From contig CAVQNT010000002.1 in assembly GCA_963714275.1 (NCBI GenBank), positions 928,001 to 992,000 of the forward strand: a DNA stretch of 64,000 bases, given 5' to 3'. The position numbers and the translations under genes are program-made. The DNA comes from Candidatus Bathyarchaeota archaeon (lineage in GTDB: Archaea > Thermoproteota > Bathyarchaeia > Bathyarchaeales > DTEX01). Under the pieces are notes generated by a model, which saw nothing but the letters and a program-made list of their open reading frames with translations, did no database searches and was not told the origin of the DNA. Shown here piece after piece: positions 1 through 38,795 of the stretch; the stretch's first letter is position 1; each line of letters begins with the position of its first letter.

Positions 1-211
1 AACTAGCTAGCCAGTCAGCTAGAAGCAACAAGAATGTCGCAGTATTCAGCCTTTTCGACCAGTTGGGGAATGAGTTCTGGAGGGTTCTCAGGTCAGCGTC
101 AATCGTGACATTGACCGAGTATTTAGCTAGTTTCATAGCCCGTGCGCAACTGTGACAAATGTTTCAATAGAACCTTTGTTCCGTAGGATTTAATAAGTAT
201 GAAGTGTAAAG

Positions 212-466
212 TTGGTAAGGGATGTAAAGATGACCCATGTGAAAGTAAGCTCAAAATATCAGATAACTATTCCAAAAGATTTCAGGGAGGCACTCAGCAT
301 AGAGGCAGGTGACCGGCTTTATGTTGGGCGGGAAGGTGGGAAGATTGTTCTTCACCCTTTCCCTAAGGTTACGAATCCAACAGATAAGCTGTATGGAAGC
401 GTTAGAGGCGAAGAGGATGCTGTTGAAGCTGTCCGAAAGTTCAGGAGAGCTGGGGGCAGATCTTGA
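212..466 (+). CDS. AbrB/MazE-type antitoxin (VapB-like)
   Basis: VKVSSKYQITIPKDFREALSIEAGD is a SpoVT/AbrB motif; overlaps the downstream PIN gene. Confidence 0.85.
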   Translation: MVRDVKMTHVKVSSKYQITIPKDFREALSIEAGDRLYVGREGGKIVLHPFPKVTNPTDKLYGSVRGEEDAVEAVRKFRRAGGRS

Positions 467-882
467 CATACTATATAGACACAAATGTATGGATTTACGC
501 CATGATTGCCCATCCAAAATATGGGGGAAAATGCAGGGAGATCTTGAGTAATATCGAGGCTGAGAAATTGGAGGCTGCCATTTCCACTCAAGTTCTAGGA
601 GAGATCACAGGAGTCTTATACAGCCAGTATAAAGTGAAAGATACGACGTCCCAACTCAACGCGGTGCTCTCCTACCCAATTGATGTCTACATTATTCATC
701 CAGATGTAATCAGAGTGGCAGCTGAGTACGCTCGAGACTATGGGATCACACCTTACGACGGAATCCATGTCGCCTCAGCAGTAGAAAACAATGTTAAAGA
801 AATAGTTTCAGCGGACAGAGAATTTGACAAGGTAGAGACAATAAGAAGAATAGACCCGATAGAATTCAGCTTCTCCTCCTAG
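463..882 (+). CDS. vapC: PIN-domain toxin
   Basis: YIDTNV, E, YDGIHVA and SADREFD acidic PIN motifs. Confidence 0.9.
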   Translation: MTYYIDTNVWIYAMIAHPKYGGKCREILSNIEAEKLEAAISTQVLGEITGVLYSQYKVKDTTSQLNAVLSYPIDVYIIHPDVIRVAAEYARDYGITPYDGIHVASAVENNVKEIVSADREFDKVETIRRIDPIEFSFSS

Positions 883-1115
883 GTAGGGTTCCATTAACTC
901 TTCTCTGGCTTTTCTGATTGTTTTTTCTGCATGTTTCTACGCGAACTCAGTGGTATTCCAACCTATAATGAGGTTCAATGCTTTCTCGCTCGTTCCAGGT
1001 TGTTGTAATTGGTATTTGACATGTCTTATGTCATTGTCGCTGTGACCTACGTACTGTAAGCATTCATTCTCCATCTGGATCGCTTTGAACTTAACGGGCG
1101 CATCTCTATACTTTT

Positions 1116-1370
1116 TTACTCATAAATGGTCTTTCTGTGACCAACATCTAAGAAGACGACAAGTTGAGGCTTTGGTTCGATTATGTATATAATTCTATAT
1201 TTGTCCATTCTCCATCGCCATCGTCCCTCAAGCTCGCCTCGTAATCTAACACCTGAATAAGGGTTATTGAGTATCTCGTCGATAGCCCTTAAGATCCTAT
1301 TCTTTATGTTCTCTGGGAGTTTCTTGAACTCTCTAAGAAAACTTTTGGTTAAGGCAGCTTTGTAAGCCAA
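1116..1370 (-). CDS. relE: RelE/ParE family toxin
   Basis: NPYSG..LRGELEGRWRWR..KYRIIY...GHRKTIY. Confidence 0.85.
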   Translation of the reverse strand: MAYKAALTKSFLREFKKLPENIKNRILRAIDEILNNPYSGVRLRGELEGRWRWRMDKYRIIYIIEPKPQLVVFLDVGHRKTIYE

Positions 1371-1379
1371 AGCCGTTAT

Positions 1380-1598
1380 TCACTCAGTAAATTTCTTAAT
1401 TTCACTGCTATTTTGAACTGTTATGTATTCTCCTTTCACGTATTCTTGTTCAGCCTTACGTATTCTCTCCAAGCCTTCCTTGTCCATTAACTCCTCAAGT
1501 GTTGTGAGAACCTCTTCAACTTTGGCTAGTCCCGTATAGAGGTCTTTTAACAACTCCTTGGGTATAGAAACGGTTTCTGCCACGCTATGCACCAGCAA
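1380..1598 (-). CDS. putative antitoxin partner of RelE
   Basis: small acidic ORF directly upstream of relE; ETLE-like/RKAEQEY..G pattern. Confidence 0.65.
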   Translation of the reverse strand: MLVHSVAETVSIPKELLKDLYTGLAKVEEVLTTLEELMDKEGLERIRKAEQEYVKGEYITVQNSSEIKKFTE

Positions 1599-1654
1599 TA
1601 TTTTTTCTCTAGCCTCTTAATTAACTTTCTCTCAATGTGGGGAGGCTTATTACG

Positions 1655-1707
1655 GTTCTCGTTCATTCCAGGTTGTTGTTACGACGGACACTCCATCCGT
1701 ATTCATG
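1655..1707 (-). pseudogene. N-terminal fragment of a GT2 glycosyltransferase
   Basis: near-identical to the start of 58819..59463 (MN.DGVSVVTTTWNERE). Confidence 0.7.
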
Positions 1708-1779
1708 GTTTAGGCCTCTAGATGAAAAGACAGGAAAACGTTTATTTTCTTGAAAAAGAGATTGCCCAGAAAGGTAAAA

Positions 1780-2301
1780 TTAGTCGTTTTCTGCTGTCAC
1801 TACAATGGTTGCGGTGGTTGGTTGGTCTGAACTCACTGATTTGGCAGTTGCAGTTATTTCAAAGTCGAATCTCCAAGCTCCAGACGCATCTAATGTTACA
1901 GCGGCTGGATCAGGCGCTCCTATTGTCATAGTGCAAGCCGTATCACCTACAATGTTGCTCCCGCCGGGTACAGCTGCAAACTTAACGGTTATAGTGTATG
2001 CGGTGTAGTATGAGGTTAACGTGTCTAAGTTGCTGTTGAAATGAAGATAAACGTTGGCTTTCGTTGTTGTGATGTTTAATATGTTGCCAAGACTCGGAAC
2101 TGTAGCTTTAGTAATGCTTTTTGTTTCTCCTTCTTCTATATTGCCTAAAGCGGAATTTTGCACTGTTAATGTGGTAACCTCTTTAATAGTTTGCGTTACT
2201 TGCAGCTGTGCTTGTTCATAGACATATGCTGAAACTGCTATGGCAGATAAACTTAGCAGTATAAACAGAACATTAACTATTGGTCTTCTTTGAATTCCCA
2301 T
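1780..2301 (-). CDS. secreted/surface protein (VSAYVYEQAQ family), paralog of 39119..39646
   Basis: N-terminal hydrophobic signal; Thr-rich beta-type sequence; full-length similarity to the paralog. Confidence 0.75.
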   Translation of the reverse strand: MGIQRRPIVNVLFILLSLSAIAVSAYVYEQAQLQVTQTIKEVTTLTVQNSALGNIEEGETKSITKATVPSLGNILNITTTKANVYLHFNSNLDTLTSYYTAYTITVKFAAVPGGSNIVGDTACTMTIGAPDPAAVTLDASGAWRFDFEITATAKSVSSDQPTTATIVVTAEND

Positions 2302-2409
2302 GTTTTCTACCTAGTCAGCTAGATTCTTTTATCTTTATCTGGGATATCTAGCTGAAAAATAAAAAGTATTATGAATGCGCAGTATAGATTCCATATTCAC
2401 ATTCTTTAT

Positions 2410-2500
2410 AATTTTTTGTGCGATATACGATACATACGATACAGAGGATGCAAACAGAAGCGGATAAAAGTAAATAAGAGAAAAAAAAGAAAAAAATTTA
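2410..2500 (-). repeat. degenerate element-end/leader-like repeat
   Basis: reverse complement matches 18308-18400 (TTTTTCT...GTATCGTATATCRCACAAAAAA). Confidence 0.7.
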
Positions 2501-2521
2501 ATAGCAGATTGAAGCGAGAAG

Positions 2522-3025
2522 TTGAATATTTCAAGAGTTTTAGGAATATTATTTCTGCTCTTCGTAGTTTTGGGAATATTATTTCTGGTCTGTTCATTTT
2601 TTGTTCCTTTTTACAGTTTTCTACCTGCTTGGAAACATTGGGAGGGTACTTATACAATTGGGGCAGGAACAAGCAATGGGCCTTTAGTAGAACTGTCCTA
2701 CGGGCCAGTGGTTGAAGGAATACTTGTCATAGACGGAGGCAACAATGATATTAATTTCTCAGTAGAAGACTTTCAGGGAGGAACTGTTATTTCGAAAACG
2801 TTGGCGTCAGATAGATACTACTTCGGTCCATTTCAGGCGTTTCAAAATACATATTATTTCATTTTCGACAATAGCATGAGTCTTAACCCCAAGACGGTAT
2901 ATTGGATAGTCCGTGCGTATTGGTATAACCTTGTATTCTTAATATTTGGTGTTTCTTCACTGGCTTTGGGAATAATCGTATTGTTGTATGAAAGAAAAAA
3001 AGGCCTATCCTTTAGTTGGCGTTAA
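2522..3025 (+). CDS. membrane-anchored protein with possible GOLD/emp24-like beta domain
   Basis: N- and C-terminal TM helices; DINFSV...YYFIFDNSMS. Confidence 0.6.
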   Translation: MNISRVLGILFLLFVVLGILFLVCSFFVPFYSFLPAWKHWEGTYTIGAGTSNGPLVELSYGPVVEGILVIDGGNNDINFSVEDFQGGTVISKTLASDRYYFGPFQAFQNTYYFIFDNSMSLNPKTVYWIVRAYWYNLVFLIFGVSSLALGIIVLLYERKKGLSFSWR

Positions 3026-3100: not shown

Positions 3101-3115
3101 GACTAAATTTTAATC
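3101..3115 (+). repeat. left target-site duplication GACTAAATTTTAATC
   Basis: identical direct copy at 9506-9520. Confidence 0.9.
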
Positions 3116-3230
3116 TTTTTCTTCTTCTTCTTCTGTTATGTTCTGTTACGTTACGTTATATAATCTCGTCTTGTCTTCTTCTCTTATCTACTGACTCTCA
3201 CACTCTCTTCGCTCTGCACTCTGCTCCTCT
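3116..3230 (+). repeat. left terminal inverted repeat (115 bp)
   Basis: reverse complement of 9394-9505 apart from one extra CTT unit. Confidence 0.95.
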
Positions 3231-3264
3231 CTGTAGAAAACAACTAGAACAAAGAAGACAAAGA

Positions 3265-3930
3265 CTAGGAATACTTCTCTAAATAATCATTTATGGCTTT
3301 GAGAATTCTTCCTTTGTAAACTTCATCTTTAACACTTTTCTCTATTATCCAAGAGCTGACAAAATCCGTTATAGGATGAATGCATAATCTTACAGCAATC
3401 TGTTTGTCAAGGCTTTCAGGGTCTAACTCGTATTCGATTCGGTTTTGAATCTCTTTTAGTTTCCTAAGAAAATGAAAAACTAGGGCTTCATCTATTTGTT
3501 CATTCTCAGGTAGAGAAAAAAAAGACTCTTTACTTTTTCGTTCGAATTCTGTCATTCTTTTAAGTTCATCTGAAGCTTCGATTAGTTTACCAAATTTTTC
3601 GTTGTTTAGGCTGTAAGTTACATATTGGCTTCCTTCTTTTGGAGTTCGAATGACATATTTGGCTTCAATTAGATGTTTAAGATGGTTATTCAATGTTGGT
3701 TTAGACATCTCTTCTGTTCGTCCATGCACAAAAAACTTGTATAGTTCATTGAAATGCATCTGTTCTTGGAGAAATAGAGCCACGAATATTTTGGTGCAGT
3801 ATTCGTCTAATCCTGTCAAGTTTTTCGCCTTTGTTAAGTTACCAGTAAATTTACTACTAGTTAATATACTACTACTTAAACCTTTGTGTAAACACCTGTG
3901 AGGTAATAAATATGCCACATGAAGAAACAA
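3265..3930 (-). CDS. winged-helix transcriptional regulator (true start probably downstream of the ORF call)
   Basis: MHFNELY...MSKPTLNNHLKHLIEAKYVIR...YSL (HxlR/ArsR-like wHTH). Confidence 0.75.
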   Translation of the reverse strand: MFLHVAYLLPHRCLHKGLSSSILTSSKFTGNLTKAKNLTGLDEYCTKIFVALFLQEQMHFNELYKFFVHGRTEEMSKPTLNNHLKHLIEAKYVIRTPKEGSQYVTYSLNNEKFGKLIEASDELKRMTEFERKSKESFFSLPENEQIDEALVFHFLRKLKEIQNRIEYELDPESLDKQIAVRLCIHPITDFVSSWIIEKSVKDEVYKGRILKAINDYLEKYS

Positions 3931-4085
3931 GAAAAATAATCAAGGTAGGAGAAACTTCTTTCGCAGTTATCCTTCCAATGCCTTGGCTCAGATACTATAA
4001 ACTCGACAACAAAGATTCAGTTGAAGTCATTTCAGATGGCGCCGTAACAATAAAACCGCTAAAGAAAAAAGAGGCTAAACCATGA
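3912..4085 (+). CDS. AbrB/MazE-like DNA-binding protein (57 aa, not in the ORF track)
   Basis: manual translation MPHEETRKIIKVGETSFAVILPMPWLRYYKL..KDSVEV; GAGGT RBS; ATGA overlap with the next gene. Confidence 0.75.
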   Translation: MPHEETRKIIKVGETSFAVILPMPWLRYYKLDNKDSVEVISDGAVTIKPLKKKEAKP

Positions 4086-4507
4086 CCGAAGACATGAAAC
4101 TGAAAGAACGAGCTGAATGGCAACAGTTCAACGAAGCCATCGAAAAAGAAGGAAAAGAACGCATCAGCCTCAGCGAATACCGCAAACTAGCAGAAAAAGA
4201 CAAGCATCCTGAAGACTTCATTGAAAATATAGGCTCATCTAGACCATTAGCTCACCAAGCCCAAGAAGAAATGAACGCTCAAAGGACAATTCGAGCCTTC
4301 AACATGGAAATAGAACTTTTGAAGAAAAACCCGAATTGCCACGTTGAAATTGGTCTTTCCCGTGGAGCTCCCATAAAAGGCGTTTTCAGAGGATTAGACG
4401 AAAGATACGCTAAAATTGCAGTTGAAGAGGACGGTTCAACGAAAGAATTAACCATAGTCCGCCTCGGCTACGTTGTTGCGATGCGAATTAGAATGACAAG
4501 TGAGTAA
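4082..4507 (+). CDS. protein with C-terminal Sm/LSm(Hfq)-like domain
   Basis: VEIGLSRGAPIKGVFRGLD...TIVRLGYVVAM resembles Sm1/Sm2 motifs. Confidence 0.5.
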   Translation: MTEDMKLKERAEWQQFNEAIEKEGKERISLSEYRKLAEKDKHPEDFIENIGSSRPLAHQAQEEMNAQRTIRAFNMEIELLKKNPNCHVEIGLSRGAPIKGVFRGLDERYAKIAVEEDGSTKELTIVRLGYVVAMRIRMTSE

Positions 4508-4509
4508 CC

Positions 4510-5033
4510 ATGAGGTTTAGTCTTCTTTTGCAGAAAAGACTCAAAATCAGTCGGATTACTCTGTTCTTTAAAGGATATTTTCTGATATCTAACACTCAAA
4601 CGCTTGGAGGCGTAACCTCTAGGGTTGTTGGAGAAAAACGCATTCACTACATTTTTTGGGATTTTGACAAGTGCACTCTCGGAGAAATTGAAACAAAACT
4701 AGGTCAAATTCAGCGAGAATTCGGTCTCGGTAACATCTATGTAACCTCTGACCTTGAAGGTTCGTATCGAGCTTGGTGCTTCTCTAAAAGGTCTTGGATA
4801 GAATACTTGCACATTCTAATCAGCTCTTTTCCATTGTTGGATTACGGATTTTGGGTTTGGACAGTAAGACGTGGAGTGCAACATTGAGAATTAACAAAAA
4901 AGAGGGAAGACAACCTCAGCGTGTTATTTCATTCCTGAAAGGCTACGAAGAAACTAGCATTCCAGAAAAAATGGTTCATGTCATTTATGACACTGGAATA
5001 GAAAAAAGTGGCATGGTGGTCAAAATTGGATAA
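4510..5033 (+). CDS. possible AEP (primase-polymerase)-like protein, frameshifted near 4880
   Basis: IFWDFD (hhhDhD), YVTSDLEGSY, LD, then ATLRINKK in the second frame. Confidence 0.4.
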
Positions 5034-5361
5034 ATTCCCAGAGGCATTCGCAAGGTTCGAGGAAGACGTTGACACTGAAGAAATTGAAGATTTCAGAGAA
5101 TTGAAAGCCAGTTTCAGCCTCTGGGCTGGTGAACACTGGGTAGGTTCCTCGAGGCAGATAAGTGCTTTGAAGGTTGAAGCTCATAGACTTGGAATTTCCG
5201 TTCCAGTTGTGGCTAAGCCAAAACGGATTGCTAAGGGAAGAGCTCGCAGAGGCAAAGTTGAAGCTCGGACTTGGCGTTTCGAAAAGGTAACTGTGAAGGG
5301 TAAATCTCAACCTCGTTACCGAGACTTGGAGACTGGAAGGTTCATCAAAAAACCCGAGTAG
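5008..5361 (+). CDS. basic protein with RDxxxGRF C-terminal motif
   Basis: RYRDLETGRFIKKP; homolog at 19160..19375. Confidence 0.7.
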   Translation: MAWWSKLDKFPEAFARFEEDVDTEEIEDFRELKASFSLWAGEHWVGSSRQISALKVEAHRLGISVPVVAKPKRIAKGRARRGKVEARTWRFEKVTVKGKSQPRYRDLETGRFIKKPE

Positions 5362-5373
5362 GAAGGTGAAACT

Positions 5374-5610
5374 ATGAGGTGGAAGGATTGCGGATATTTA
5401 TGTGTAAGTAAAAGCGGAAAGAAAATTGTCATAGTCATTAAGCATATTCGATATGTTGCAACTTTGGAAGCGTTCATGAAAATCTTGGATGGAAAACAAA
5501 ATTACACTCTGATCTATGAACCGCCACAGAAAGAAGTGAAAAAAGGACTTTTTGATGAGATGAGCAAAGAAGAACAGCTGGAAAGAATGAAACTGCTTAG
5601 AGGTGATTGA
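5374..5610 (+). CDS. hypothetical protein
   Basis: GGTGA RBS; lies within the operon. Confidence 0.6.
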   Translation: MRWKDCGYLCVSKSGKKIVIVIKHIRYVATLEAFMKILDGKQNYTLIYEPPQKEVKKGLFDEMSKEEQLERMKLLRGD

Positions 5611-5871
5611 GGATGGCGAAAAAACAGAGTTTGGTTTTGAACCTCAATGAGAAAAGCGACTATGAAAGACTTGAAGAACTGCTTAACAAAGGATACGAGT
5701 TGAGGCAAGTTTTGAATAATCTTGTAATTTTGGAGCTGAAGGAAACAGAACAAAAAATTGTTAATCTTGGTCAACGTATCACATGACAAGGTAGATGACC
5801 TTCTGAAGGAAGGCTACGAAGTTAAAGAATCGTATAAAGACAGCGTGGTACTCGTCAAGAAGGCTTAAAGT

Positions 5872-6078
5872 GTGAATCCATTGCACAAGTTGATGGTTGA
5901 CGAGTGTTTTAGTGGTGGCGAAACCCTGAGCATCGAGCTTGTTAGTAAGAGAACAGACCTACATTTTTGGGAGGCAGCACACTGGCTCGGTAAATTGGTG
6001 CATGAGGGAAGACTAAAAATCGTGTTTCGAAAAGACGGAAGAAAAGCAATTAAAACACTGTATTATGTGAGAGCTTAG
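5872..6078 (+). CDS. small wHTH-like protein
   Basis: LSIELVSKRTDL..EAAHWLGKLVHEGRL. Confidence 0.5.
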   Translation: MNPLHKLMVDECFSGGETLSIELVSKRTDLHFWEAAHWLGKLVHEGRLKIVFRKDGRKAIKTLYYVRA

Positions 6079-6154
6079 CAGTTAGATCATAGAATTGAAT
6101 TATAGAAACTTGTTTCAGAAACTACAAAACAAGCGATCTGCATAGATTCTAGGC

Positions 6155-7189
6155 ATGGTTAAATCGAAAGTTTTGAAGCTATCTTGGATGGTCAAGGCTC
6201 TTATCTTGGAAGAGCTGAAGGCTGTTTCGAGGTTCGAGACAGAAACAAGAACATAACTCGTTATCCACATTTTGAAAGAGAAATAGGCGAAGCAGTCCTA
6301 AAAAGCGGAAACTACGTTTCAGTTGACGCTTTAATTGACCTTGCATTGTGGAATGTTGACACATACATCATGACCAAAAAGAACCGTGTTGCAGCAGTTT
6401 TAAAGAACCTAGAAGACGATTCTCACGTTAAAACTAGGGTTTGCCAATATAAAGCCCTAGAAGACGGTAAAGGCATTCAAATCGCTAAACAATTGGTTCA
6501 AAGCAAGAATCAGAGGACAATGTTCAGTTCTCAAAAAATATGATATTAAAATTCCAGAGCTAAACATTGAAGGAATGATTGAAAGCGTAAATTCGGAAAG
6601 CCTAGAATTTGCGAGAATAAAACTGACTTCTATTGAAGGCAAATTTTCAGAACTTTACTTCAAGCAGATTTTCAGCTTGTTTCCAGAGAACATTAGACCT
6701 AAGAAGAGAATGACTTTCAAGGCTTACGATGGAATAAACAACGTCTTCAATTTTGGCTATTACGTCTTGAAATGCAAAATTCATAAGGCTTTGATTAAGG
6801 CTAAACTTGAACCTTATTTAGGCTTTTTGCACAGTGTCCAGTTTGGGAAGCCTAGTTTAGTGTGCGATTTTCAAGAACTGTACCGCTACCTCATAGACGA
6901 TTTTCTGATTGAACGTAGAACGAAGTTTCACAAAAACGACTTTGTAATTATAACAGACTTTATGATGCGTCTTCGTATGGGAAAGAAGATTCACTTGTGC
7001 GATTACGAGACTGATAGTCTAGCTAAAGACTTAAATTCACTATTTGAACGAACAATCGAAATCCCACGTATAAAAGTCGGCAAAAAGCAAACACTTGAAA
7101 CGTTGATTAACGAAGAAACCTTACTATTTGCTAAGTATCTAAGAAATGAATGGAAATCTTGGACTCCAAGAATAGCGGTGTTAAAATAA
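6155..7189 (+). CDS. cas1: solo Cas1 integrase (casposase-like), two apparent frameshifts near 6180 and 6507
   Basis: GSYLG..EGCF N-terminus; IEGKFSELYF, DGINNVFNFGYYVL, LEPYLGFLH, SLVCDFQELYR carry the catalytic E/H/D(E). Confidence 0.92.
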
Positions 7190-7205
7190 GCCATTAGCGA
7201 AGAAT

Positions 7206-8241
7206 TTACTCCGAAAAGAAATCTTGGAGTCTTTTCATTTCTCCTTGTATTTCTTGGGGTTTGCTAATTTTTCTAGATTCTTCAGCTTGTAAATTGCATA
7301 GCCTCTTAAAGAAATATTCCAGCCTATTTTTCTCGATGTCCTTTCCGTAATAAATTTTGTATTTTTCATTATCCAATTTATCAGCAAGACCAATTTCACA
7401 GAACTTCTTTAGCGTGTTTTGTACCCACCTTTTCCTAATTTGAGCCATTTCGCCCTTCAAACCAGACCAAGGTATATAGTACTCGTAAGCTTTTTCTAAT
7501 ATTTGGTCAAGATTGACTTCAAAATCCTCACTTCCTTCACTGAAAGTAGGGAAAATTTCTCCCCATATCTCATTCATTAAGTATGATATCGGGGGTTCTT
7601 TTCTTGTGAATTTGCATGAAGAATATTCAACTGCTAGTTTTTGGATATCAAAGCTAATTCCATTTTCAATCCTTTTTTGTAGTTCAGCACAATTCACATT
7701 TCCGCTAACATGTTTAATGATAATTTTGTCTAGAGCTGGGAACTTCATGCCTTGTATTAGTCCCCATTCAGTTATACACAAACTTCTTTTAAGTTCTAGT
7801 TCTCCATCACTTACCATTTTTGATATGATTCTTAGAAACTCGAGCCGAATCTTCAAGATAAACAAGTAAGAGAACATCGTGGTTCTGCACCCATTTAACA
7901 GCTGTATCCCACCCTCCGACTTCTTTCATATACTTCTGTAATTGGGGCAGTAATCCAAGTCTGGCTATCGAATTCAGCTGAGGAATTGAGGTCTTAACCT
8001 CGCAAAGGATACCGCATTTATCATCATCATATTGCATAACAATATCAGGCTTTACCTCTTCTCCATCTTTCGTGCGGAATATGGGTTCTGAATAGACAAA
8101 TTTACAGCCAAACTTATAATTTTCCAAGTAGTTCTTTATTCCAAGCGTGAGAAGAACTGTATCGTAGTATCTTTGAAATTCAAGCTTCTTGCTTCTCAGA
8201 CAATATTCAAATTCTGAGGAAGCCATTCTGAGAACCCTCAC
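7206..8241 (-). CDS. PD-(D/E)xK nuclease-domain cargo protein (two overlapping ORFs, probably one gene)
   Basis: VKPDIV...CEVKTS motif; ORFs 7807..8241 and 7206..7877 overlap. Confidence 0.6.
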
Positions 8242-8265
8242 TCAAAGAAATCGGCTATTTTGCCT

Positions 8266-9286
8266 TCATGAAAGGCTCTCTATAAGGTGCTTTGAGAAAC
8301 GCATTAAAGCTGCCTTTGTGGCTTTGATTTGGGGCATAACTAAAAGTGAATCTGAATCGTATGTTCTGAGTGAAAATGATGAATTATCTATCCTATCAAG
8401 TAAAGTCAAATAGATATGAGGATTACCTTCGTGAACAATTGAATAGGAACAGAAAGGATATTCTTGAATTGTTTTTATAAATCTTTTACGAATTTCTTCT
8501 TCATCGAACATAGTTTCATCAAATTTAATAATAAGAGGATTTACCTTTTTCTGAGGGTCATCCTTTCTGCTTCTTCCTTCAAATCTCTTATACTTTGAAC
8601 GACACATCTCAGACCATTTTTGAAGTAAAACATAATATTCGTCGAAAGCCCCAAGAGAGTATTGCATAATTCCCTTTCTGCTCATACTAAAATCATATTT
8701 CGCTGAAATTACACTTATGCTGTCGATCCAAAGTCGATCTTTGCGAACAATCTCAAAGGTTTTTGTGAATTCTTGGGATTCGAATCGTATATTAGATACC
8801 CTTTGTTCTCCGAACATACGCTTGGCAACATACTTATTAGTGTTGAAGTCAACTTTCTTGTTTTCACTAAAAAATGTCAGAAGTTCAAAAATCTCTTGAG
8901 ATGTTAAATACCCTAATATAGCATTAGGATACATCATTGTAGTTAAGTATAAAAGGCATCTATCTACATAGCGCGAAGACTCACCTGTTATAAGAAAAAT
9001 TTGATTCTCTTTTTGAAGTGCATAAAATCTACCTTTTACATCCTGTTCCCTCATTCGTCTAGTTGCCTCACAAAACCATAGCTGAGTGAGGCTCTTGTTC
9101 GTTATGAGATAGGTTAGAATATTTTATCTCTATGCCCTCCTCTAAAGCCAAATCTTTAAGAATTTGTTCGAATTTCATATCTGAAAGCAAAGAAAGGACC
9201 TTTACAGAGCCATAACTTCGTTTTAGGGCAGAAGCGGAATAATTATTAAGTATAAGCTTCTGGGCGAACGTTATTTCATCAGACAA
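8266..9286 (-). CDS. hypothetical cargo protein (probably frameshifted: 9068..9286 plus 8266..9054)
   Basis: long ORFs co-oriented with the nuclease gene. Confidence 0.55.
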
Positions 9287-9393
9287 ATCTTAATCCCTAT
9301 TATGTCTCAGCTCAATAAGACAATTAAGGCTTTGGGTTTTTCTAAAGGGATTAAAAATCTGTTTTATTGTCAGATTAGTGTAGAGAGTAGAGT

Positions 9394-9505
9394 AGAGGAG
9401 CAGAGTGCAGAGCGAAGAGAGTGTGAGAGTCAGTAGATAAGAGAAGAAGACAAGACGAGATTATATAACGTAACGTAACAGAACATAACAGAAGAAGAAG
9501 AAAAA
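9394..9505 (-). repeat. right terminal inverted repeat (112 bp)
   Basis: reverse complement of 3116-3230. Confidence 0.95.
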
Positions 9506-9520
9506 GACTAAATTTTAATC
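9506..9520 (+). repeat. right target-site duplication GACTAAATTTTAATC
   Basis: identical to 3101-3115 in direct orientation. Confidence 0.9.
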
Positions 9521-9620
9521 CCCACACACACACTTATTTTCTTTTATTCTTTTATTTTTTCTTTTATTCTCTTTCCCTCTGAACGTATATCCCGTGTATC
9601 GTGTATATCTCATACAACTG
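9521..9620 (+). repeat. leader-like/element-end repeat (CCCACACAC...CGTATATCCCGT...TATATC)
   Basis: similar to the reverse complement of 36610-36691. Confidence 0.7.
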
Positions 9621-9795
9621 ATTGACAAAATGTAGCACAAAACACATAAATACAAGTCTGTCATGAGGAAGCTGGAGATGTCTTAGTTAGCTAAAGAAAA
9701 TAATTTTTATTTAGCGCGCGCGCTAAGATTATTCAATTCCGAATTCTTGTAGACTATAGAACTGCTGAAGGTATTCTACGCCTTTTTCAGTGGTT

Positions 9796-9999
9796 TTAAT
9801 TAAGTCTGCCGTTGCCTTCAGAATTTGCGATTAATCCTGCTTTTTTGAGTTTTTCAAGGTACTCTTCCAGCATCTTGAAGTTCATGTTAGCTCCATACAC
9901 TATTCTGGTTTTTTTGGCGCCTTTGCTAGCAATTTTCAGAATCTCAGCAACAATTTCTAGGTTGCTTCTTCTCTGTGACATATACATTTTCGTTAACAT
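9796..9999 (-). CDS. archaeal winged-helix regulator (possibly truncated or frameshifted at the 3' end)
   Basis: RRSNLEIVAEIL...GAKKTRIVYGANMN...YLEKL..GLI. Confidence 0.8.
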   Translation of the reverse strand: MLTKMYMSQRRSNLEIVAEILKIASKGAKKTRIVYGANMNFKMLEEYLEKLKKAGLIANSEGNGRLN

Positions 10000-10334
10000 T
10001 GTTTCTTACCTCGCTTTCGAATTATAGTCCAATGTTTCGAACACAATGCTGGGCTTCCCGAATTGAACCTAATATAAATTCAGTCACTTGCGTAATCATC
10101 GCATTAAATGGCTAGAAGATCCTTTGCCCTTTCAAGGATGTCTTCAGATGGTTTTATCAGGGGAGTTATAGGCTCTTGAGGAGTCTCTATCATAGTGTCT
10201 TGTGTTGCTCGGGCTTGTTTAGAATCTTTAAGTCCATTCAGATAGAGATTAGCTCCAAGTTCTATTTCATCAATTTCTTCTCTTTTGCTGAACATTGTTT
10301 CTTACCTCGCTTTCTAATTATAGTTCTATGTTTA
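9995..10334. repeat. ~43-bp direct repeat of the start/RBS region (9995-10037 and 10291-10334)
   Basis: AACATTGTTTCTTACCTCGCTTTC.AATTATAGT occurs twice. Confidence 0.8.
10104..10295 (-). CDS. hypothetical protein
   Basis: shares the duplicated RBS (GAGGT) with the neighbouring gene. Confidence 0.5.
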   Translation of the reverse strand: MFSKREEIDEIELGANLYLNGLKDSKQARATQDTMIETPQEPITPLIKPSEDILERAKDLLAI

Positions 10335-10653
10335 CCAAAGAAGACTATTTTAAGGTTCTCTAACAAAAAAGGATAGTTTTTACCAATATTAAACAAAAGA
10401 AAACGTTTTTTACCACATAAAGAAAAACGATCATACTATTTCTAGTTAATGGAAAAAATAATCCAATTTGTCCAATTTTGGAAAAAATTTAAAACGATCA
10501 AAATCTAGTTTACCGCTAGCTTAGTTAGTGATGGAGACAGATCTTGTTTAGGCTGTCCTGAGACTGAAACAAAATAATCCAACTAGAATTTCTCCGCAAA
10601 TTAATGAAATGTTCTAAGGCCTATTTTATAAGCGACCGTGCACATAATTATAC

Positions 10654-10872
10654 ATGAAAGTGATTATTTTGAGTTTTGATTTGACTGGAATAGTTTATTC
10701 CATAAGTTATAGAGTTGTTAATAAACTTAGAAAGGCAGGAGCTGTTTCTAGAGATAAGGCGATGACACCTGAGACTGCCAATCTAAACTTGCAGGAAATC
10801 GATTGGCTACAGTATTTAGCTTGTGACGCTTCAACAATTAAAAAGACAAGAGACGGGCTATACTATATTTAG
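10654..10872 (+). CDS. hypothetical protein
   Basis: plausible small ORF (GAVSRDKAMTPE...KTRDGLYY). Confidence 0.5.
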   Translation: MKVIILSFDLTGIVYSISYRVVNKLRKAGAVSRDKAMTPETANLNLQEIDWLQYLACDASTIKKTRDGLYYI

Positions 10873-11336
10873 CTCGCGCTATCAGTTACACAACGGCTAG
10901 CTCAGCTAGTTATTCTAACTGTTAGCATAATTCCCCATTTTATTCTATTTCTCTATTTACCCATTTCTAATTTTAGTTTTTGAACTGAATGCATTGATAT
11001 TGCACACACAGTTCATTGACGTTTTCAATAACGTTCTTTCAATGCAGAACTCAACGAGTAAATCCTTTTACTCGAAGTTAGCTCAGCTAAAAAAGAGACC
11101 CAAGAAGCAAGGAAAAAATAAACGAAAATCCGATGATATCGATTCCGTACAGAAAAAACAAGAAACCTAACTCGCCATATGTATATCCCTTAAAAATAAG
11201 TTGGAAGCTTCTCAATAACCATTCAAATAAACCCACAAAAAATCCTAAACGAAAACGTGTATGCCTAAGCTTATTTCTGTAATAGTATTCAGCAAACCAC
11301 CAAATCCATCCGCATATTTGCCAAGAATTGCTTAAA

Positions 11337-11522
11337 CTATTGTCTCGTCATAACGACGACTTCTTTAAGGGTTTCCCTTTCTTGTTGCCATAGTTCCCTT
11401 TTTAACAGGTCTCGGACAGCGAATCGGATAGCCGCGCTCCTAGATGAGTATATGCCCTGCTCAATCAGCTCGTTCAGCCCCTCCAAGCAGGCTTCGGGCA
11501 GCAAGAACGTCACCAACTCCAA
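11337..11522 (-). CDS. CopG/RHH regulator
   Basis: LVTFLLPE...G.YSSRSAAIRFAVRDLL. Confidence 0.85.
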   Translation of the reverse strand: MELVTFLLPEACLEGLNELIEQGIYSSRSAAIRFAVRDLLKRELWQQERETLKEVVVMTRQ

Positions 11523-12066
11523 TTATAATCGCCTCCGTGTATGGGAAATCGATCGATCGCCATATGAAAACCTTTCAGGCTCCTAAAAAGGATGTTAAGT
11601 GTCAGCGATATCTCAGCATAATAGTATGCTTTCTGCGTAGGTTCGTACTGCTGCTAAAAGCTGGCTAGCTCACTAAAATTTTGGTACGAGAGATAGATCG
11701 ATCAGATAACGCTAGAAGTCATATTAGAAACTTAAAAGGCGAATACGATCCTATTCAAGCATCTTTTATCGACACTTAGGTATCCATATAGGTTGGTACC
11801 TAATCACTTTCAAAATTACCTCTCACCATTAAGGAAATAGCTGAGTACGTGAGTCACCTATCAGATAATAGAAACATTATATGCTTTTTGCCTGTTCGAT
11901 GACGACTACGTTGTGGATTTCCATTTTCGGAAAACATAAACCCGTTCTAGATTTAACTTGAAGATAATAACATCACAAATTGACACAAGGACACCGTTCC
12001 TTTTTCTTATCTAGAATTATATAATACTAATGATAAAAAGATTAATCTAAATTAAAGGTGAAAAAG

Positions 12067-16189: not shown

Positions 16190-16204
16190 AATTAAAATTT
16201 AATC
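16190..16204. repeat. palindromic site AATTAAAATTTAATC
   Basis: flanked by TGTGTG and CCAAACCC, the same flank types as the Cas1 element target. Confidence 0.75.
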
Positions 16205-36609: not shown

Positions 36610-36706
36610 TGTGTTGTTGTGTGATATACGGGATATACGTGATACGGAGTAAGGTAGAGAGAGATAGAATAAGAATAAAAGTGTGTGTGGTGACTAAATT
36701 TTAATC
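36610..36706. repeat. leader-like end plus site GACTAAATTTTAATC (36692-36706)
   Basis: site identical to the Cas1 element TSD; followed by TTTTTCTTCTT. Confidence 0.85.
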
Positions 36707-37200
36707 TTTTTCTTCTTATTTGTTCTCATGCGTTCGTGTATGTTTGTGCTTAGTGTATAGGTGAAGGTGTAAGTGTGTTTCACTAGCTCTATTTGCGAAG
36801 TTCGTAGCTTGTGATCTTGACAAATCTAATTCATTCGTTTTTGTTTCCTTCCCAACTACATAACCTAAACCCAAAAAGCCTAGAATCGTTCGCATTATAG
36901 TGTAAAAGTAAGCGTTCCACCAGCCCATCTTGAAAAACGGGGAAAACTCCCAGTAACTTACGCTATAGTACCAACTGTTAAATCTGGGAGCTACAATCAT
37001 CCAGTCTAAGTCAACAAGTCCAGAAGTTAACAAAACGACGGAGCCGAGAAGCAATAACACGGTTTTATCATTCAATGTTTTTCCCTCAACGTTTCTTCTA
37101 GACTTAGACTATGATTTTCATTCAGACTTCAATTCTCCAAAAAAAATTAAGGAAGCCAATAATAAATGTATGAGAATGAAAATTATGAATTTTACCTTCC
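36692..37200. repeat. segment duplicated at 49081-49590
   Basis: near-identical; both copies start at the palindromic site. Confidence 0.9.
36716..37075 (-). CDS. small membrane protein (copy 1)
   Basis: nearly identical to 49179..49481. Confidence 0.6.
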   Translation of the reverse strand: MNDKTVLLLLGSVVLLTSGLVDLDWMIVAPRFNSWYYSVSYWEFSPFFKMGWWNAYFYTIMRTILGFLGLGYVVGKETKTNELDLSRSQATNFANRASETHLHLHLYTKHKHTRTHENK

Positions 37201-37544
37201 TCTAATAACCAAACCAAAATCAAAACCTTTTCCTATTTTATATTTATTTTACACAAATAGCTAGCTAAGTGTTTGGAATCATGGAAAAGGGGGAATCAGT
37301 TTCAAGGCATATTATGCCCCCTTAACCAGACGGGATTCACGATGTTTCCACTCAAAATCGCATGATAAAAAGTCTTATAAAAATTAGAGAACCATTAATA
37401 GCCATAAAACCGTTAGCTGCAGGTAATAGCGCGCGCTAGCTAGAATGCAAGTCACGGAATCTACAGGAAAATGTGCATATAGCTCAAGTCCAGTTTTTAT
37501 CTATTCAAAGACTTCTTTCTTAACCATGAATTTGTTCACTAAAC

Positions 37545-38399
37545 AAAGGAAAACTTCACTGTATCATTTTGCCCACTACACCTTTGGAGATTATGTGACC
37601 ATGAGCTCTCCAGAGCTTGAACAAACTGCTCATTATCCCATCTATCGAAATCGTAGAGGCACAACCCGACAATATCCATGTTGAATTGCCTACCCAGAAG
37701 CTCTTCGTATCTTAGTAGCTCAGTAGTCTTTGCATAGTCAACGAAAACCTCAGGTTCTCCAGCAACACGTAGTCCCGTAAATCCAGCTTCTTCTTCTCTT
37801 CAACAAGTGCCGTCCAATTGGATATAATTGTTTCAGATTTAACCTTTCCCCTTTTCAATGAACCATTCATAAGCTGACTTCAATGTAAAAGCTTCTTTTT
37901 CTAAGTTGTCAAGGTCAATGCCATATCTCTTGGCTTCTCGAACCTTCGAATCCAACTTGTTTTCCGATACTAGGTATACAACCGCTTCATTTTTGAGTAG
38001 TCCCGCTTTTAGGTATGGAAATGTTATCCTGTTTTTGAAGTCTTCATCAGTATATAATGCTAAGGCATGGTCTCCTAACCTAAGATTTTGGGCATATCTC
38101 GCGCATTCTGAGCAAAACAAAATAATTGAACGAAAATCCTTAATCACTCCAGTCAATAACCTTCCTTTGTAAGTTAAACGGTATTTCTTACTTGAAGGCT
38201 CAAGTTCAACGAACTCCTTCAGAATTCTTAAATGATAACCAAAATCGCCATGATTACTCTTACCAATCATGTTAAGGAGTTCTATAAATGACAAATTTCT
38301 ATCCAGCAAACATTCTACAATCTCTCTCCTAGCGGGATGCGAGATGACTTTAAAGAATCCATTATTAAACTCGTTCTGAAGATTCATAACTTCAAGCAT
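37545..38399 (-). CDS. ArsR-type wHTH plus MEDS sensory-domain protein (frameshifted)
   Basis: HPARREI...GYHLR.L; GDHALALY...YLKAGL..NE.VVY; downstream TGLRVAGE and LCLYD. Confidence 0.8.
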
Positions 38400-38780
38400 G
38401 AAAGAATATTATCAATTATTTATCTGTTTGGTGAAATAAATTTCACTTGTTGTAACTGATTAGCTACGGCATTTTTACTTAGCTTTGGCTATATCTAAGG
38501 CTGGTGTAACCACAAGTGATGATGGCAGCGACAGCTTCTTCAAGTAGTGAGCTATTTCACCTATTGGAACAGATTTCCAGATAACAGGACCTTAATTGAA
38601 CAGCCTAATCCAATAAAAATTAAAGTTAAGATTCCAGTTCCTAGCTTTTGGCTTATAATACCCTTAACAATTGCAGTCTTTTTAAAAAACTATCATAGTC
38701 TGATCATTCTACGTGTGATGTGGAGAAAAGTGTAGATATGGAAGAAAGAAGGTGGGAGTGCGTAGAAATGTGTGTATGGA

Positions 38781-38795
38781 GATTAAATTTTAATC
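38781..38795. repeat. palindromic site GATTAAATTTTAATC
   Basis: preceded by GTGTGTATGGA. Confidence 0.75.

Follow-up and report, generated by a model that had tools for sequence, protein, structure and literature searches.

Casposons have been proposed as the ancestors of the CRISPR adaptation machinery. In the published definitions they combine Cas1 with a family-B DNA polymerase (PolB) (PMC9939771, PMC6563490), and tandem casposons with one common duplication are described from Methanosarcina and Nitrosopumilus (PMC4779613, PMC6563490). A further group, the 'family 5' casposases, was proposed in 2022 from hot-spring metagenomes; according to the main text of that paper its members stand next to the archaeal subtype I-A Cas1 in the tree, keep the catalytic residues, have no helix-turn-helix (HTH) domain, are more than 50% identical to each other, carry terminal inverted repeats (TIRs) on some contigs and are accompanied by PolB in one divergent member only (PMC9755687). 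The present analysis concerns a stretch of 64,000 nucleotides from a Candidatus Bathyarchaeota archaeon (the whole stretch is now on referred to as the window; G000:C2:928001-992000, in a genome of 2.64 Mb, 10 contigs and 91% completeness, G000), which at positions 3101-9520 quite probably holds a defective, small Cas1-encoding DNA transposon belonging to a casposon-like family without PolB.

A repeat search between positions 2500 and 10200 revealed two inverted arms of 112 nt, 3119-3230 and 9394-9505, which are 99% complementary, and no other long inverted repeat. When read by eye the left arm contains one extra CTT unit compared to the right, giving the left TIR a start at 3116, as an earlier interpretation of the same DNA (the sequence-only reading) had it, and in each arm a 20-nt motif is found twice, 48 nt apart. 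The 15-mer GACTAAATTTTAATC is present in direct orientation at 3101-3115 and 9506-9520 with 100% identity, touching the outer ends of the TIRs. Inside the arms the Pfam family Cas_Cas1 matches at 6184-6543 (E 2.1e-9, profile positions 5-114) and, in the adjacent frame, at 6575-7189 (E 9.6e-25, profile positions 150-269), and the motifs IEGK, GFLH and CDFQELY are legible, in agreement with the proposed cas1 gene with catalytic E/H/D(E) motifs.

Paralogues in G000 exist only for the cas1 part of the window element. Two intact Cas1 copies of 344 amino acids (aa) are encoded on contigs C4 and C7, each inside inverted repeats and direct, nearly identical 15-mers. In a word-indexed search of ~5.8 billion proteins, 2,076 of 6,746 candidates proved to be Cas1 relatives at E ≤ 0.001; identity is 67-100% for the 120 best, which are located mostly on contigs of 1-12 kb. 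Among the species-representative genomes 15 loci hold the closest relatives (51-73% identical), with record titles naming Bathyarchaeota/Bathyarchaeia in 13 cases, a Thermoproteota single-cell genome in one and Levybacteria in one, and in 9 of these loci, as in the C4 and C7 copies, cas1 is enclosed by an inverted repeat. A k-mer scan showed arrays at none of five family loci from relatives.

Altogether 12 elements of 3.9-7.6 kb could be delimited, comprising the window copy, the copies on C4 and C7 and nine from metagenome-assembled genomes (MAGs) of Bathyarchaeia, with TIRs of 75-190 nt in the family and 75-188 nt in the sister elements. When core genes were defined by clustering the open reading frames (ORFs) of at least 50 aa, Cas1 was the sole gene common to all 12, while gene 2 (163-210 aa) and gene 3 (90-183 aa), situated directly downstream of gene 2, were each present in 11. 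The other genes are element-specific cargo, such as a ThaI-type restriction enzyme with methylase, Fic/DOC, an SDH-type protease, zinc ribbons and HTH proteins. The assignment of Cas1 is given by matches in Pfam, NCBIfam and PADLOC, and the catalytic residues E162, H227 and D239 show no variation among 17 members of the family. The family is common in Bathyarchaeia, and the idea of a compact Cas1-associated element with TIRs, a 15-bp target-site duplication (TSD) and no PolB, first put forward for the window copy, is supported and extends to all 12 delimited elements.

The record titled Candidatus Levybacteria bacterium (L017) is a 5.6-kb contig in a bacterial candidate phyla radiation (CPR) bin, where Cas1 is 69% identical to the archaeal family and the 15-mer together with a C/T-rich end is also found; it is probably a mis-binned contig. 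Two IMG/VR contigs classed as viral (L073 and L074, 22 and 26 kb) encode a 344-aa Cas1 that is 47% identical to the family, and in L073, the one of the two that was examined, inverted repeats, gene 2 and gene 3 are all absent.

The 15-mer of the family is near-palindromic, with the consensus GATTAAA(T/A)TTTAATC, and in all ten elements with a legible central asymmetry (AAATTTT versus AAAATTT) its two copies are direct where the arms are inverted. It varies between elements and is matched within each, being GACTAAATTTTAATC in the window copy, a G-rich variant in L020, another variant in L022 and clearly different in L026, while the repeat of L042 is a 13-nt, A/T-rich sequence. Relative to the asymmetry cas1 has the same orientation in five elements and the opposite in five, which argues against a 15-mer borne by the element. 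A comparable site with no insertion was found for a sister element, L021, whose flanks match contig C2 of the MAG G442 at 84-89% identity. In L021 the order is left flank, 15-mer, 3.9-kb element, 15-mer and CCGAACCCAAAC, and in G442 it is left flank, a single 15-mer-like sequence (11 of 15 positions identical) and CCCAAACCCAA; from ~12 nt rightwards of the 15-mer the loci have differing segments of 0.7 and 1.7 kb, after which synteny resumes.

As the copies are direct, varying but matched, without fixed orientation towards cas1 and reduced to a single copy at the empty site, the 15-mer is, judged from these comparisons, a TSD over its full 15 bp. This agrees with the earlier statement that the flanking 15-mer is a duplication outside the TIR, and of the length of 11-15 bp then allowed only the upper value holds, positions 1-2 and 14-15 varying between elements and matching within each. 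The search for an empty site, which had been suggested as a check, succeeded for L021 only: for the window copy and the C4 copy the same-genus genomes match the flanks at only ~70-75% and in scattered pieces, so that synteny is unusable. None of the 17 loci scanned has a tRNA gene adjoining it, and in the window no tRNA or Rfam feature was found at the target.

Separate differences were noted around L021. Compared to it, L076 (G443:C5), from a third related genome, is without a 7.7-kb stretch (L021 3482-11213), which comprises two flanking genes, the element and an old remnant, and has ~78 bp between the flanks common to both. At L021 15759-15824 a repeat of ~55-60 bp, unrelated to the Cas1 elements, is found that occurs in many places of G442 and G443, including at least 8 contigs of G442.

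The largest ORF across the 12 elements is 460 aa. Among their 97 ORFs of at least 90 aa, 13 matched Cas1, and at E ≤ 0.001 no match was obtained to Cas2, to DNA polymerases, to recombinases of the tyrosine or serine type or to DDE catalytic domains; on this search the earlier remark that no cas2, PolB, DDE transposase or tyrosine recombinase is recognisable inside the window copy extends to the 12 elements. Searches of G000 with PF00136 and PF03175 located three PolB loci, none of them within an element; a protein-primed PolB was not found. All seven Cas1 matches in this 91% complete genome belong to the family, no Cas2 match was obtained in it and a k-mer scan of it gave no CRISPR array. Distant Cas1 genes of related genomes (23-33% identical) have Cas2-sized ORFs as neighbours, with arrays at 6 of 13 loci. 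In a genome of the same order a 2.7-kb contig (L048, G183:C92) encodes a 596-aa protein-primed PolB (PF03175, E 9.8e-49), so that polymerases of the classical casposon type or of viruses exist in that order too.

Gene 2 has 325 relatives, of which the 120 listed are all unnamed, without a Pfam domain and 148-188 aa in length, and gave no match in PHROGs. A predicted model of its product (mean pLDDT 71.7, core above 90) was compared with 48,161 chains using VIA-align, for which a Z of 8 was taken as the line of caution. The top rows are dominated by domains of archaeo-eukaryotic primases (AEPs), all with Z below 8: LigD polymerase 7.0, AsfvPrimPol 6.5, archaeal PriS 6.0 and 5.8, RepB' 5.7, S-2L PrimPol 5.6 and human PrimPol 5.4, and one non-AEP chain ties at 7.0. 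The Prim-Pol domain of CAPP (CRISPR-associated Prim-Pol) aligns with a Z of 4.9. The best Foldseek matches in PDB are to LigD polymerase (E 0.025), BFVD gave as best match (E 4.7e-4) an archaeal filamentous virus protein that is uncharacterised, with primase-helicase proteins next, and the comparison with an Atlas cluster in which 54% of the members carry PF24387 (AEP-like) scored 0.96. In the alignment of gene 2 the residues D61, D91, S95, R97, C100 and D120 are invariant and E63 nearly so, and D61/E63 may correspond to AEP motif I (DxD/E), S95-x-R97 to an altered motif II (SxH) and D120 to motif III (hD). The model thus weakly suggests an AEP-like fold for gene 2, the similarity being at the level of the fold only. 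The product of gene 3 is predicted to be all-helical and gave no match in Pfam, Atlas or Foldseek searches.

To place the Cas1 of the family a tree of 51 sequences was constructed by a quick IQ-TREE search with SH-aLRT support, in which long branches were flagged. It combines 13 members of the family and 17 cluster representatives without labels with 13 Cas1 that are CRISPR-linked in related genomes and 8 family-1 casposases, with casposase families 2-4 and 'family 5' absent. The last set consists of Cas1 encoded 4-7 kb from a protein-primed PolB of 592-605 aa in genomes of the same phylum, and these were taken as family-1 casposons because spanning inverted repeats are present at 7 of the 8 loci. 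The family forms a clade together with 6 of the representatives (support 99), the CRISPR-linked Cas1 form another (support 95) and the family-1 casposases a third (support 100, stem length 2.05). The Cas1 phylogeny proposed earlier as a test accordingly gives the family a clade of its own, which on the sequences compared is separate both from family-1 casposases and from the CRISPR Cas1 of Bathyarchaeia. The protein spans TIGR00287 end to end (residues 10-335 on model positions 2-324 of 327) with no extra domain. Of the contexts of the nearest outgroup Cas1 sequences, one 7.9-kb metagenome contig has neither TIRs nor gene 2 or 3, and a CRISPR system is not obvious on it.

The window copy is damaged. 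Three-frame reading and tblastn with the intact paralogue showed that its cas1 starts at a real ATG at 6155 (reading MVKSKVLKL where the intact copy reads MVRGTKILRL), shifts frame near 6182 and reverts near 6505, with 70-78% identity to the intact 344-aa copy on contig C4. Gene 2 has one frame change near 4875. The three frameshifts are taken to be real lesions because no site lies within a long homopolymer. An alternative genetic code as the cause of the broken cas1 was considered and rejected, the breaks being frame changes and not in-frame stops. As its frames are read here the copy is defective and should no longer be able to make Cas1 or the primase-like protein, both of which it needs in trans if it is mobile at all. 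The sequence-only reading underestimated both the damage and the gene content, that is, three frameshifts in two core genes and a conserved AEP-like partner gene. It also suggested recent activity from the near-identical TIRs. Across 2 x 112 nt of repeat there are one mismatch and one 3-nt indel, a divergence that would be compatible with several lesions accumulated in 6.2 kb since insertion, and the similarity of the arms is for that reason no proof of present activity.

When the 15-mer, with Y at position 3, was searched for in the 2.64-Mb genome, 23 exact copies were found and, with at most one mismatch, 34 forward and 42 reverse matches representing 56 distinct sites. The same pattern read backwards gave 0 and 1 matches, so that the abundance is not due to chance. 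The sites are clustered, for example 9 in 67 kb around the window. The exact 15-mer occurs in only 3 of 60 relatives, with 1-3 copies each, most of the relatives being fragmented assemblies that may have lost repeats. Taking 12 nt on either side of each of the 56 sites, 30 of the 112 flanks are C/T-rich, like the start of the window TIR, 50 are C/A-rich and 32 neither, compared to ~1% for each of the two classes at random positions. The C/A-rich flanks represent sister-lineage ends, the repeats of the C7 and L042 elements beginning CCCAAACCC.

The neighbours of the window copy are a GGTTTGGGTTTGG end on the left and a CCCACACACAC end on the right, which suggests that it inserted into a 15-mer common to two older elements and that its flanks are older element ends and not ordinary host DNA. 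Partner inverted repeats for these outward flanks were not found in G000, though the flanks recur elsewhere in the genome. The 15-mer duplicated by resident elements is re-used by later insertions, which gives rise to arrays of whole and decayed elements with a common 15-mer. That every neighbouring pair of 15-mers bounds an element was tried and rejected, clear TIRs being present in three pairs of the genome, plus a weakly scoring pair of 15.7 kb; in the window the pair 3101/9506 is the only one with clear TIRs.

Seven more 15-mers with 0-2 mismatches were noted in the window, at 16190, 18293, 36692, 38781, 49081, 55321 and 58616, most of them with a one-sided C/T- or C/A-rich end. Their neighbouring pairs show no clear inverted repeats, and the pair 18293/36692 reaches a score of 26 where the null maximum is 16. 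The 2.1 kb between two of them (36692-38795) has an inverted duplicate at G000:C2:85231-87332, ~880 kb off, with identical 45-nt flanks on both sides. Positions 1-3000 and 9521-12000 contain few short ORFs, and many segments there recur in the genome at 85-99% identity, for example 10515-11055 at C5:168259-168800. The window as a whole looks like a graveyard of such elements.

Decayed copies of cas1 are also spread over the genome. About 17 loci on contigs C1-C7 of G000 hold only the last 70-200 bp of the gene (codons ~275-342), for example C2:483599-483703 and C3:5368-5475, with stop codons shortly upstream and unrelated neighbouring sequence to the left and right. These remnants are 70-83% identical to each other at the DNA level, and their amino-acid identity lies above the expectation for neutral decay. 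Similar remnants are present in G442 and G443, one of which borders the variable segment beside the empty site. With its 2.64 Mb G000 is larger than all 60 relatives sampled (0.9-2.2 Mb, mostly fragmented) and has 23 exact 15-mers compared to their 0-3, and such elements can inflate an archaeal genome.

The proposed mechanism follows the in vitro integration by casposases of other families, which is the basis for the joining and gap-repair steps (PMC9939771, PMC4779613, as far as described there). A Cas1 multimer would bind the TIR ends and join the 3' OH groups of the element to the two target strands 15 bp apart, and gap filling by repair synthesis would then duplicate the 15-mer. The near-palindrome of the target would allow insertion of the element in both orientations. 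The AEP-like partner gene may stand in for PolB, its small product and host polymerases filling the role of PolB in replication or gap repair; with less confidence, the AEP-like protein would prime or fill in and the bulk of the synthesis be left to host polymerases.

Several observations weigh against interpreting the window copy as a casposon-like transposon of this kind. The part of Cas1 as transposase of the elements is deduced from the analogy with casposases and from the lack of another recombinase, and in the tree the family does not group with the family-1 casposases. When scores against PDB entries were used as a proxy for casposase family 2, a family-1 casposase gave 106.3 bits with the Methanosarcina mazei casposase 6opm and 91.9 with the CRISPR Cas1 4n06, while this family scored higher with 4n06 (76.7) than with 6opm (52.6), an order that its profile repeated (138.7 and 107.4). 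For the window copy no sign of activity, excision product or insertion polymorphism turned up, the public sequencing runs found containing at most 0.14 of the sampled words. For gene 2 the AEP assignment is weak, with every Z below 8 and a best Pfam E of 0.057 in one of ten members, and the position of the motif II histidine of AEPs is taken by an invariant arginine in gene 2. To this are added the three frameshifts in the window copy, two in cas1 and one in gene 2, and the circumstance that re-use of duplications only partly explains how a 15-bp target came to be at 56 places in one genome.

The elements might instead be integrated small plasmid- or virus-like replicons with an AEP-like replicase, moved by a host recombinase or an unrecognised one and carrying cas1 as passenger cargo. 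The resemblance of gene 2 to replication proteins of archaeal viruses and plasmids would fit such replicons, as would the 47%-identical Cas1 on an IMG/VR contig without TIRs, gene 2 or gene 3 and the many metagenome contigs of the family that are about element-sized. However, cas1 is the one gene that none of the 12 elements lacks, integrase and transposase families are absent among the 97 ORFs, and TIRs with a 15-bp duplication are what Cas1-type and not tyrosine-recombinase integration should leave, which makes this alternative unlikely. A 15-mer that belongs to the element itself, be it a direct repeat at the termini or a core of att type, is very unlikely: its near-constancy in most elements and across species would suit this, but the evenly divided orientation of cas1, the variants that match within and differ between elements, and the single copy at the syntenic site without an element all point to a target.

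That cas1 is a decaying remnant of CRISPR adaptation lying by chance between unrelated inverted repeats is hardly credible, even if the window gene is frameshifted and has the length and layout of an ordinary Cas1 (TIGR00287), as 12 elements share this gene set and these ends, G000 shows neither a Cas2 match nor, by k-mer scan, an array, and the family clade lies apart from the CRISPR-linked Cas1 of related genomes. An inverted repeat created by chimeric assembly, which the sequence-only reading had named as a reason to abandon it, has a negligible probability in view of the same architecture in independent assemblies of different studies and twice more in G000. A defective casposon-like transposon without PolB is retained as the probable explanation of 3101-9520, and the features of this copy are collected in Table 1.

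Table 1. Features of the window copy and its borders, with positions given in the window
Feature	Position	Strand	Basis and remarks
Left TSD copy, GACTAAATTTTAATC	3101-3115	+	100% identical to 9506-9520
Left TIR, CT-rich start TTTTTCTTCTT, 20-nt motif at 3126-3145 and 3174-3193	3116-3230	+	Repeat search
221-aa ORF, possible winged-helix regulator	3265-3930	-	ArsR/MarR matches only sub-threshold (E 0.026-0.032), below curated cut-offs
57-aa ORF, AbrB/MazE-type DNA-binding domain	3912-4085	+	PF04014, 25.2 bits (cut-off 24.7)
141-aa ORF, no family found	4082-4507	+	ORF list, Pfam
Core gene 2, small, putative AEP-like fold (primase-polymerase), single frameshift near 4875	4510-5033	+	In 11 of 12 elements
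Core gene 3, small protein, predicted all-helical	5008-5361	+	Present in 11 of the 12; fold and feature searches without a match
Three small ORFs (5374-5610, 5607-5786, 5872-6078)	5374-6078	+	No family found
cas1 pseudogene starting with the ATG at 6155, frame lost near 6182 and regained near 6505, E, H and D/E motifs of the active site legible	6155-7189	+	Pfam, three-frame reading, tblastn
Four cargo ORFs (7206-7877, 7807-8241, 8266-9054, 9068-9286)	7206-9286	-	No family found; absent from the other elements
Right TIR, 112 nt, 99%	9394-9505	-	Repeat search
Right TSD copy	9506-9520	+	Repeat search

When compared to known systems, the elements have the casposon traits of Cas1 with catalytic residues, TIRs and a TSD of ~14-15 bp, and lack PolB inside the element; of a CRISPR adaptation module both cas2 beside cas1 and a nearby array are missing. 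With casposons of families 1-4 they have in common the gene for a Cas1-family integrase, the TIRs and a target duplication of ~14-15 bp (PMC4779613, PMC9939771), as well as sequence-specific integration and tandem arrays in which neighbours have one common duplication (PMC4779613, PMC6563490), as far as these sources describe them. They differ by the conserved AEP-like gene in place of PolB, by a size of 3.9-7.6 kb compared to ~8-20 kb (PMC9939771), by a Cas1 without an additional HTH domain that falls outside the family-1 clade, and by a target that is neither a tRNA gene (none adjoins the 17 loci scanned) nor ef-2.

The 'family 5' casposases, solo Cas1 as in this family, fit by their description, on which the comparison is based (PMC9755687). 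The main text of that paper does not use the word TSD, speaks of poorly conserved hypothetical proteins as neighbours and reports no target, core genes or arrays (PMC9755687). The earlier claim of an architecture different from known casposons thus stands as regards the missing PolB and not as something wholly unprecedented, the largely PolB-less 'family 5' having been proposed already in 2022 (PMC9755687). Apart from that proposal, a literature search covering few subscription journals gave no description of the 15-mer target, of the family or of a transposon combining Cas1 with a primase. What the analysis adds is an abundant family, with more than 2,000 Cas1 relatives in metagenomes, that keeps Cas1, TIRs and the 15-bp duplication and has a conserved primase-like gene for the polymerase.

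The linkage of a Cas1 gene with a protein of putative primase-polymerase fold is reminiscent of CAPP and the small AEPs of plasmids and viruses. Compared to these gene 2 is only ~165 aa, has no helicase or other domain and carries an arginine for the motif II histidine. CRISPR adaptation by Cas1-Cas2 likewise involves insertion by Cas1 at a short, partly palindromic repeat, duplication of that repeat and an array of inserts between repeat copies, while in this family there is no Cas2 and no CRISPR array, the inserts are of kilobase size with inverted repeats of their own and the duplicated unit is 15 bp. The well-defined and re-used short palindrome makes target recognition by Cas1 without Cas2 directly testable with oligonucleotides, and the arrays would offer a case from nature in which Cas1, in the absence of CRISPR, places inserts between repeats. 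It is possible, though doubtful, that the elements represent a distinct lineage of Cas1 transposons, with a Cas1 nearer to the CRISPR type, a small primase-polymerase replacing PolB and arrays in which identical short repeats separate the inserts, formed by repeated integration into the one conserved palindromic 15-mer; if so, this lineage would be a present-day counterpart of the stage that has been proposed to lie between casposons and CRISPR arrays.

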